From Mobula hypostoma (lineage: Eukaryota): a stretch of 64,000 nucleotides of DNA. This document shows, piece by piece, positions 29,178 through 34,505 of the stretch; positions within the stretch are counted from its first letter, which is position 1; each line of letters starts with the position of its first letter. The stretch lies in contig NC_086108.1 in NCBI RefSeq assembly GCF_963921235.1, forward strand, positions 82,276,001-82,340,000, given 5' to 3'. The position numbers and the translations under genes are program-made. The notes beneath the pieces were generated by a model. It saw only the letters and a list, made by a program, of their open reading frames with translations. It was not told the origin of the DNA and made no database searches.

Positions 29178-30749
29178 CAGGTGTCCCCCGCTTTTCGAAC
29201 GTTCGCTTTACGAAACCTCACTGTTACGAAAGACCTACATTAGTACCCTGTTTTCGCTTTCAGAAGGTGTTTTCATTGTTACAAAGAAAGGCAGCGCATG
29301 CCCCGAGCAGCCACTCTTTCACGGATTCGGAACAGCGTTGCTTAAACACGTTGCATTGAACAGCCATTAGCAAGATGAGTTCTAAGGTGTCGGAAAAGCC
29401 TGAAAGAGTAAGGGTGTTACACTTAGTGTTAAACTAGACATAATTAAGCGTTTCAATCGTGGTGAACGAAGCAAGGACGAAGTGAGTTTGGCTTGTGGAA
29501 GTTGACGAAGATGATGTTGAAGAGGTTTTGGCATCCCATGACCAAGAACTGATAGATGAAGAGCTGATGCAATTGGAAGAGGAAAGGATAACAATTGAAA
29601 CCGAATGCAACCGAATGCAGAAAGTGAAGCAACTGCGTGAGATTTTCACTGCAATGATAAAGTACGACTTTAATTTTGAAAGGGTACGTAGGTTTAGGGG
29701 ATATTTGCAGGATGGTTTGAGTGCTTACAAACAAGTGTATGATAGAAAAGTGCGCGAGGCTCAGCAGTCAAGCAAGCCTTCCACATCAGCCACAGCCGAC
29801 GATGAACCTCGACCTTCGACATCGAGGCGGGCAGTCATAGGAGAAGATGAGCTGCCTGCCCTGATCAACGATGAGATGACACCCCCGTGTCCCACCACCC
29901 CAACCCCCGGGCCCCGGACAGATACTGTACCGATTCGTGAAGAACGCAGCGGTAGCCGGGAGGCACACAGCACATCGTTAAGAAAAAAGCTGAAATAAAC
30001 ATGCTAATTAATTAGGTACTGCCTAGCACGTAATTGTCGGCCCAGATCAGAAGCGATGCAATCGGAAATCGCCTCTGATCTGCGCCGACATTTACGTGCC
30101 AGGCAGCACCTAATTAATTAGCATGTTTACTTCAGCTTTTTTCTTAACGATGTGCTGTGTGCCTCCCGGCTACCGCTGCGTTCTTCACGGCAATGTATCG
30201 GGTCGGCTGCCCAGAGGGTAGGGGCCACTGCACCACCCAGCCTGCAACGGCTCAGTCTAACACACCATCATCAGTGTGCTCGGCGCTGTTTTCCCAATTC
30301 CGGTAAGTGATACTACACTGTACATACATTATTTCTACTTTATATAGGCTGTGTATTTTTACGTGTTATTTGGTAGATTCGGCAGCTTCATAGTTTAAAG
30401 GTTACTGGAGAGCACGTTTATGCCAACAGCGCTTGCATGAGATTTTCTGCCAAAAGCGCTTGCGTGAGATTTTCACTACGGAGATCTGTGCAGGCAATCG
30501 TTGTAGAGAAGTATTTCTACTTTATATAGGCTGTGTATTTATCATATCATTCCTGCTTTTGCTAAATGTTACTGTTATTTTAGGTTTTATGTGTTATTTG
30601 GCATGATTTGGTAGGTTATTTTTGGGTCTGCAAGCGCTCACAAAATTTTCCCATATAAATAAATGGTAATTGCTTCTTCGCTTTACAACATTTCGGCTTA
30701 CGAACCGTTTCATAGGAACGTTCTACCTTCAGATGGCAGGGGAAACCTG
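29178..30749 (+). mobile_element. Tigger/pogo-like DNA transposon, internally deleted
   Basis: TA TSDs; ends CAGGTGTCCCCCGC and GGCAGGGGAAACCTG; psq/CENP-B HTH remnant GVTLSVKLDIIKRFNRGE joined to an acidic C-terminal remnant EVDEDDVEEVLASHDQELIDEEL; no DDE domain seen. Confidence 0.85.
29936..30189. repeat. Long inverted repeat (122-bp arms, 10-nt loop)
   Basis: Arms 29936-30057 and 30068-30189; about 6 mismatches by eye. Confidence 0.95.
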
Positions 30750-33634: not shown

Positions 33635-33865
33635 AAAACACACAAAATGCTGGAGGAAGTCAACAAGTCAGGCAGCATCCATGGAGGGGAATAAACAGTT
33701 GATGTTTCAGACCGAGGTCCTTCATAAGGACCAGTCCCAATGTAGTGTCTCAGCCTGAAACATCCCAGTCTGTTTATTCCCCTCCATAGATGTTGCCTGA
33801 CTTACTGATTTCTGCAGCATTTTGTATGGGTTGCTTGAGATTTTCAGCATCTGTGGAATCTCCTG
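33635..33865. repeat. Inverted pair of Penelope-type terminal repeats
   Basis: atggaggggaataaacag is mirrored by ctgtttattcccctccat; decayed hammerhead cores at the centre. Confidence 0.75.
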
Positions 33866-33935: not shown

Positions 33936-34505
33936 GTTGCGTCTAGAGCTTTCGTCGGTCAGAGTTGACCATGGATATTGCGTCCCAGCTGTCTAGATAC
34001 GCAAGCCCAGGCAGTACCCATTTAGCAGGCTCCCCCTCGATGAATGAACCCAAAGGATTGGTAGAGACCGATACAGTTTGGTACCAGAAGCGTCACAGGA
34101 GTTTCCAGTCAGCATTGAAATCAATGTAGGACTGCCTTAGGGACTCAAGATCCAGATTTTTCCCTTGGAGGGGTTTACTCCAGAAGCCTTCCCCATGAGT
34201 GGATATAGCTGCAAGGCAGTGGAGGTTTGAGATCAGAGTTTTTCTCCTCCTAGATGGGTTGCCAACCATGGCTGACAAGCCCCATCTGCCCAAGGCGATT
34301 GGTTTTAAGGTGCCAATAACTTGCCTTTGCTTCTTCTCCTGTTAATAGATCGGTTCTGCCGGGCTTAAAAGCTGAGCCACATGTGGAGGCCAGGAGCTGG
34401 ACTTGGTAATCAAAGGCTATTTGAGGCACATGGCATTGGGAGCATTTAATAGGTAGTGGGAGCTTGTCCCCATTACCACCCCTGCTATAACAACCTTAAG
34501 GAACC
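33936..34505 (-). mobile_element. Short non-autonomous RTE-derived element (5' UTR joined to 3' tail)
   Basis: Minus strand carries GGCAACCCATCTAGGAGGAGAAAAACTCTGATCTCAAACC, resembling the conserved RTE 5' UTR motif (from memory), and an RTE-like 3' end CCATGGTCAACTCTGACCGACG; no RT. Confidence 0.7.
34336..34505 (-). ncRNA. Degenerate HDV/CPEB3-like ribozyme fold
   Basis: P1 GGUUCC/AGAACC, P2 CUCCUG/CAGGAG, P3 GCC/GGC and L3 UCCACAU occur in nested double-pseudoknot order; the putative catalytic position reads U. Confidence 0.6.

Follow-up and report, generated by a model that had tools for sequence, protein, structure and literature searches.

With a probability of about three in four, the 64,000-nt stretch of Mobula hypostoma DNA that was analysed here (the window) holds in its middle a dead copy of a non-autonomous RTE retrotransposon (~590 nt) that joins the 5′ UTR of a BovB/AviRTE-group LINE to its final ~45 nt and starts with a predicted HDV-like ribozyme, through which active copies likely freed themselves from read-through transcripts by a cut at their first base, G1. 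The family to which the copy belongs (family 1) has a bipartite anatomy, a head that matches the head of the LINE, 5′ ends at G1, target-site duplications (TSDs) and a paired fold with the catalytic C. The element belongs to a known kind, the concept having been described for R2 SIDEs, NARTc and bipartite RTEs, and its sole part that may be new is a hairpin inserted behind L3 of the ribozyme.

The copy in the window

All the ribozyme segments that had been named from the letters alone, in what is called here the sequence-only reading, were found on the minus strand (Table 1). In the core of this copy, 10 of 68 positions are unlike a CpG-aware family majority: among them are the catalytic position 34345, where there is a U, CpGs of L3 and of P1′ that have changed from G to A, three bases of the L3 hairpin, and J1/4, which has lost 1 nt. 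The catalytic C expected of an HDV ribozyme is thus present in family 1 and missing from the window copy, and this copy is judged to be dead, as the sequence-only reading had also judged it, because of that U and the CpG decay; the rule behind the judgement is that a C-to-U change at the catalytic position abolishes cleavage by the R2 ribozyme (PMC3774820; also PMC10879173). No clear TSD was found at the window copy.

Table 1. Features of the element copy and of its predicted ribozyme head, in window coordinates.
Feature	Position	Strand	Remark
Family-1 element copy	33945..34505	minus	~590-nt bipartite non-autonomous RTE family; tail decayed
P1, 5′ strand	34505-34500	minus	G1 is the element 5′ end and the predicted cleavage site
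J1/2 domain	34405..34495	minus	~90 nt, multibranch; 8-bp closing stem with arms 34495-34488 and 34412-34405
P2, 5′ strand	34396-34391	minus	
P3, 5′ strand	34390-34388	minus	
L3, 7 nt	34387-34381	minus	family majority UUCACGU; two changes in the window copy
20-nt insert between L3 and P3′	34380-34361	minus	predicted 7-bp hairpin
P3′	34360-34358	minus	
P1′	34357-34352	minus	top pair lost to CpG decay in the window copy
J1/4 with the P1.1 G, and short loop replacing P4	34351-34346	minus	
J4/2	34345-34342	minus	U at 34345 in the window copy where the family has the catalytic C
P2′ strand	34341-34336	minus	
Remaining RTE 5′ UTR	33993..34335	minus	
Conserved RTE 5′ UTR domain	34292-34224	minus	common to AviRTE and ORF-bearing RTEs
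Predicted stem of 5′ UTR end and start of 3′ part	33978..34004	minus	deletion junction likely in loop 33992-33989
Tail, ~45 nt	33945..33988	minus	homologous to the RTE LINE 3′ terminus

Other repeats were seen in the same window. [quoted passage not shown] An inverted repeat of 122 bp, 95% complementary with a spacer of 10 nt, occupies 29936-30189, and a hairpin-like repeat at 33666-33802, with a weak, chance-level match to a miRNA model, is also present at other places in the window and at many loci.

Family 1 and its 5′ ends

A first look at the 3.5-Gb genome gave 9797 family-1 candidates, the best of which are 78–85% identical to the window copy. A 20-mer from the family head has 2282 exact genome matches (its reversed control has 0), and copies diverge from the majority by 7% (non-CpG) to about 14%, from which we infer that there are on the order of 10^4 genomic copies. 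The family majority is 590 nt long, somewhat longer than the ~570 bp of the sequence-only reading, whose description of a bipartite, RTE-derived element otherwise stands; it ends in a short TCAC/TCAG-type terminal repeat and contains no long ORF.

The 5′ ends of the copies pile up at G1, as had been anticipated. In order to avoid picking copies by their heads, 26 were selected by their 3′ half alone; 9 of these begin at base 1, 14 within 3 nt and 21 within 15 nt, and the remaining 5 are truncated at 87–270. Sixty copies taken in contig order with an internal word start at base 1 in 17 cases, within 3 nt in 30 and within 11 nt in 40. A simulation without truncation predicts starts at base 1 for 69–81%, against 9 of 21 observed, so that the real ends are often a few bases short. 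The sequence upstream of G1 is unrelated among the copies (the base at −1 was counted and reflects target DNA), and in another organism (run X19) the point where contigs pass into unlike flanks is 34505 for 223 of them and 34506 for 276. The end of the family is exactly the first base of P1, and the same is true of the LINE family and of the LINE copy L417 described below; the element 5′ end and the predicted cleavage site therefore coincide.

TSD-like matches with a score of at least 9 flank 17 of 71 near-full copies, compared with 1 of 355 mismatched control pairs, and 11 of these 17 copies end within 2 nt of G1. Together with the microsatellite tail and the 5′ truncations, the TSDs mark family 1 as a product of retrotransposition without an ORF of its own. 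It does not have the small-RNA head with A and B boxes of a Pol III SINE: no Pol III A box was found in family 1, in agreement with the sequence-only reading, and one loose B-like word lies at position 385, under a search that detected both boxes in the control SINE L129.

Two further kinds of relative were noted. A SINE with A and B boxes (L129:1510-1810 and L130:3824-4129) is ~70% identical to family positions 407–590 and has the same junction stem; it has no ribozyme, in keeping with its Pol III head. A rearranged copy, with positions 81–516 followed by an inverted ribozyme core, is found in L080, L083, L086 and L090, where it sits inside a larger multi-copy segment; in three of these four the distance to a contig start is at most 300 kb.

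The partner LINE

Through a sister family, seven genomic copies of a ~4-kb LINE were reached. Six of them are 5′-truncated; the seventh, L417, has the same G as its first base, shares 79% identity with family-1 positions 1–534 and carries the same L3 insert and, at J4/2, a deletion. Endonuclease and reverse transcriptase (RT) domains were found with Pfam in the sister copies of L417, the RT is 48% identical to that of an AviRTE-like LINE and 29% to that of a CR1-like one, and the 5′ UTR domain at family positions 216–284 resembles that of AviRTE by eye (PMC4844689, supplement 5).

At the other end, the alignment of the family-1 tail to the terminal 60 nt of the LINE has a score that is reached by 0–8 of 2000 shuffles, and this holds for all seven LINE copies; the match of the tail against the whole LINE body is not significant. 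As in bipartite RTEs, then, the 5′ part corresponds to the 5′ end of an autonomous RTE and the 3′ part to an RTE 3′ terminus. The join of ribozyme and 5′ UTR to an RTE 3′ tail that the sequence-only reading had proposed is borne out, with the qualification that the 3′ part amounts to merely ~45 nt and nearly all of the element is 5′ UTR.

The exact autonomous parent of family 1 was not found by a pattern search of the genome; two matches to the parent pattern, judged on the matched stretches themselves, look like chance. As partner RTEs, the L111 type, the L113/L115 type and the AviRTE-like L189 type were discarded, their heads or tails being different. L111:1757-4813 (minus strand) belongs to a different RTE family; it has a GAA tail and encodes endonuclease, RT and DUF6451 in one unbroken frame of 1018 aa. 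Its sisters L118, L126 and L130 have a different structured head without a descriptor match.

Bipartite RTEs without an ORF that keep the 5′ end, and a ribozyme as the reason for keeping it, are described in PMC5786205. Like RTE-N2_Lch, RTESINE2, WALLSI3 and Bov-A, family 1 joins the 5′ end and 5′ UTR to a short 3′ end, has no small-RNA head, and has a microsatellite tail and TSDs (PMC5786205). Compared by published descriptions, it differs from them in keeping a longer 5′ UTR (~545 nt) and in having a sister family with variable junction loops in which the 3′ stem arm is always kept. Short, internally deleted elements headed by an HDV-like ribozyme are also known in the R2 SIDEs of Drosophila (PMC3414825) and the NARTc/SIDER elements of trypanosomatids (PMC4035085), and for both of these cleavage has been demonstrated. 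In contrast to them, family 1 belongs to the RTE clade, is dispersed in about 10^4 copies, and its ribozyme is predicted.

The predicted ribozyme fold

In the family majority P1 (6 bp), P2 (6 bp) and P3 (3 bp) all pair, L3 is UUCACGU, J1/4 begins with GU, J4/2 is CUGA and P4 is absent. The nested double-pseudoknot order with minimal P4, the three pairings, and the resemblance of L3 to that of CPEB3, all of which the sequence-only reading had seen in a decayed copy, are therefore found in the majority, where L3 is identical to that of CPEB3. The U, C and G that are conserved in HDV L3 are present, as is the P1.1 pair to J1/4. The family consensus also carries the expected catalytic C, as the first base of J4/2, in 46 of 51 copies and in 45 of 54 position-ordered copies, and C is the majority of the depth in all four outside runs. 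A fully intact core was found in 1 of 50 and 1 of 60 sampled copies. Natural heads that are intact include those of L022 and L368 in family 1 and that of L411 in the LINE family.

The order of the nested pseudoknot, G1 as the first base of the element, the long structured J1/2 and the 6-bp P1 are all shared with HDV-like ribozymes. P4 is also missing from the silkmoth R2 ribozyme, and R2 ribozymes vary in J1/2, P4 and L3 spacing (PMC3774820). The mammalian CPEB3 ribozyme has the same 7-nt L3 (U20-U26) and the same weak P1.1 (C-G plus U-U) as family 1, from which it differs in having P4 and in having no L3 insert (bioRxiv 2022.09.22.508989, PMC9901934). As L3 is UUCUCGU in the LINE family, the identity of the two L3 sequences may be convergent, and no descent is claimed.

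The copies of family 1 lend the ribozyme no support of their own, since decay proceeds at the same pace in the core (7.3%) as elsewhere in the element (6.5%), which is expected of dead copies. RNAalifold gave no useful covariation on 30 of them, and the one compensated P1 pair, in copy L058, is too few to count. The evidence comes instead from comparison with other families. Contigs from metagenomes were scanned with a word from the RTE 5′ UTR domain, yielding 120 loci, and one of these, L258, is 73% identical over family positions 172–284 and has the same 8-nt linker ahead of P2. In the same place it contains a textbook HDV fold without the L3 insert, in which 10 of the 12 P1 and P2 pairs are altered on both sides relative to family 1 and yet remain paired, one is altered on one side and one is the same; P3 is identical, and a J1/2 domain resembling that of family 1 can be recognized by eye. 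The nested pairing of P1, P2 and P3 is thus kept across homologs, as judged from one clean homolog. L258 was the single match when 80 of the 120 loci were run through an HDV descriptor, and among the other 40, which were read by eye, there was one decayed relative (L285). This pair of one clean sequence and one decayed relative is the strongest structural evidence for the putative fold.

Ten other metagenome RTE heads (L227, L228, L230, L232, L235, L247, L262, L264, L270 and L278), 100–230 nt upstream of the searched word, have a G-rich 5′ strand that can pair ~45–60 nt downstream around a GCC/GGC-closed loop, and the GGGG of this loop could pair with a later UCCCC. Their topology is HDV-like, with a different L3 and no descriptor match; they are possibly another self-cleaving head.

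It is extremely unlikely that chance alone produced this fold at the terminus of an ordinary SINE. Its helices are short (3–6 bp), the descriptor was written after the motif was seen and permits an L3 insert of 0–30 nt, and Rfam gave no HDV-family match on the window or on L258, L411, L022 and L417; this blank is uninformative, however, because the canonical homolog L258 was missed as well. Against chance, the descriptor matched once in each of the two family majorities, both times with P1 at base 1, and had no hit in 3000 dinucleotide shuffles and found no core in 1.31 Mb of background; the compensated pairs of L258 and the missing A box of family 1 point the same way.

The hairpin behind L3

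In HDV ribozymes an L3 of 7–8 nt is closed directly by P3. In family 1 a further 20 nt lie between L3 and P3′, a hairpin that sets it apart from the HDV-like ribozymes with which it was compared and that is carried by the LINE and by 52 of the 54 position-ordered copies. It is absent from L258, and no such insert was found in any of the 120 metagenome loci. It is the odd feature of this head, and the sequence-only reading had also called it unusual. The hairpin is predicted to have 7 bp with pair probabilities of 0.95–1.0, and no compensatory change was found in it, 0 of 7 pairs being different between the two families. U27 of genomic HDV is looped out and dispensable. The insert stands at the position of this eighth L3 base (PMC1874588). 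No description of the insert, or of this family, was found in the literature that was searched by word, an incomplete set without Ruminski 2011, Webb 2009, and Webb and Luptak 2011. If the ribozyme cleaves, the HDV fold would tolerate a 20-nt helix inside L3, which would be a new grafting site, and a class of ribozymes would have been overlooked by current searches, as it was by Rfam.

Because a second GGC stands right behind L3, an active ribozyme could also be drawn in another register, with the first GGC that follows a 9-nt L3 as the closing strand of P3 and with the extra bases placed between P3 and P1. This arrangement is very improbable: it costs 5.6–7.3 kcal/mol relative to the hairpin-keeping register, breaks the confidently predicted hairpin, and loses the crossover that leads directly from P3 to P1 in the HDV core (bioRxiv 2022.09.22.508989).

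Diverged sister ribozymes were looked for in the genome by DNA and by pattern, and a search for an insert-free one gave four pattern matches, which from the matched text alone look like family copies with 2-nt deletions. In the family-1 copy L374 the entire L3 insert and one further base are gone, most likely through a deletion after insertion.

A more serious competitor is that the head is a relic, inactivated by the L3 insert before the LINE and its derivatives spread. In that case an internal Pol II promoter would determine where the 5′ end lies, and promoter function or protein binding would be the reason for keeping the sequence. The insert could slow or block folding of the ribozyme, the homolog L258 is canonical without it, and ViennaRNA favours rival pairings, with a P3 probability of ~0 in both families and a P1 probability of ~0 in the LINE family, L3 being able to pair with P1′; this is a nested model, and the pseudoknot is outside it. 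There are also precedents, as Pr77 of L1Tc is promoter and ribozyme at once and some well-folded SIDER ribozymes are inactive (PMC4035085). The comparison of family 1 with 12 heads of the LINE family speaks against a relic: the core is changed at 4 of 68 positions and the other UTR at 61 of 359 (Fisher p = 0.017), all four core changes are unpaired or pair-keeping, one of them turning G1-C into the canonical wobble G1-U, and C163, G125 and the P1.1 pair are retained while the UTR drifted by 17%. The exact coincidence of the 5′ end with the first P1 base in both families and in the LINE also counts against it, and the relic is, on balance, unlikely. The predicted ribozyme of family 1 most likely works as other HDV-like heads do and departs from their fixed L3.

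The junction stem

When about 780–880 windows of the LINE were compared, the best pairing partner of its 3′ UTR was the end of the 5′ UTR, 3.5 kb away, in five of seven copies, by a margin of merely 0.7–4 kcal/mol; it was second in one copy and outside the top two in one. All 21 short copies of the sister family retain the 3′ arm of this stem (47–125 nt are kept, and the arm starts at 44), and at least 13 distinct junction-loop lengths occur among 20 of them, the 5′ side of these junctions being biased by the choice of query. In family 1, the stem survives with two of nine pairs changed on both sides and a loop of 4 nt, and this would place the deletion junction at ~33992-33989.

The literature searched by word, with incomplete coverage, held no description of a junction stem of this sort. 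For the question, left open in PMC5786205, of why bipartite elements arise in only a few LINE clades, the 5′UTR-3′UTR stem suggests an answer that can be tested. The boldest form of the proposal, which we regard as tentative and somewhat doubtful, is that the ribozyme of this RTE lineage is an active HDV-like one with a helix in L3 and no P4, missed by descriptors with a fixed-length L3, and that the RNA of the lineage also loops through a 5′UTR-3′UTR helix with arms 3.5 kb apart, which the RTE protein needs or jumps across. If true, such looping would explain the repeated two-part offspring of RTEs.

Proposed course of events

Under the preferred reading, that of a ribozyme-headed bipartite RTE, host Pol II transcription would enter a master copy, and the double pseudoknot would fold with the 20-nt insert stacked as a side helix at the site of the extra HDV L3 base. 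C163 would then catalyse cleavage 5′ of G1. The RTE protein would bind the 3′ end of the RNA, probably including the 5′UTR-3′UTR stem, and the RNA would be inserted by target-primed reverse transcription, after which the inserted copies would decay neutrally. Self-release would need no promoter in this scheme, to which an internal Pol II promoter is the alternative. With an intact core in about 1 of 50–60 copies, the genome might still hold a few hundred that are able to cut host transcripts.
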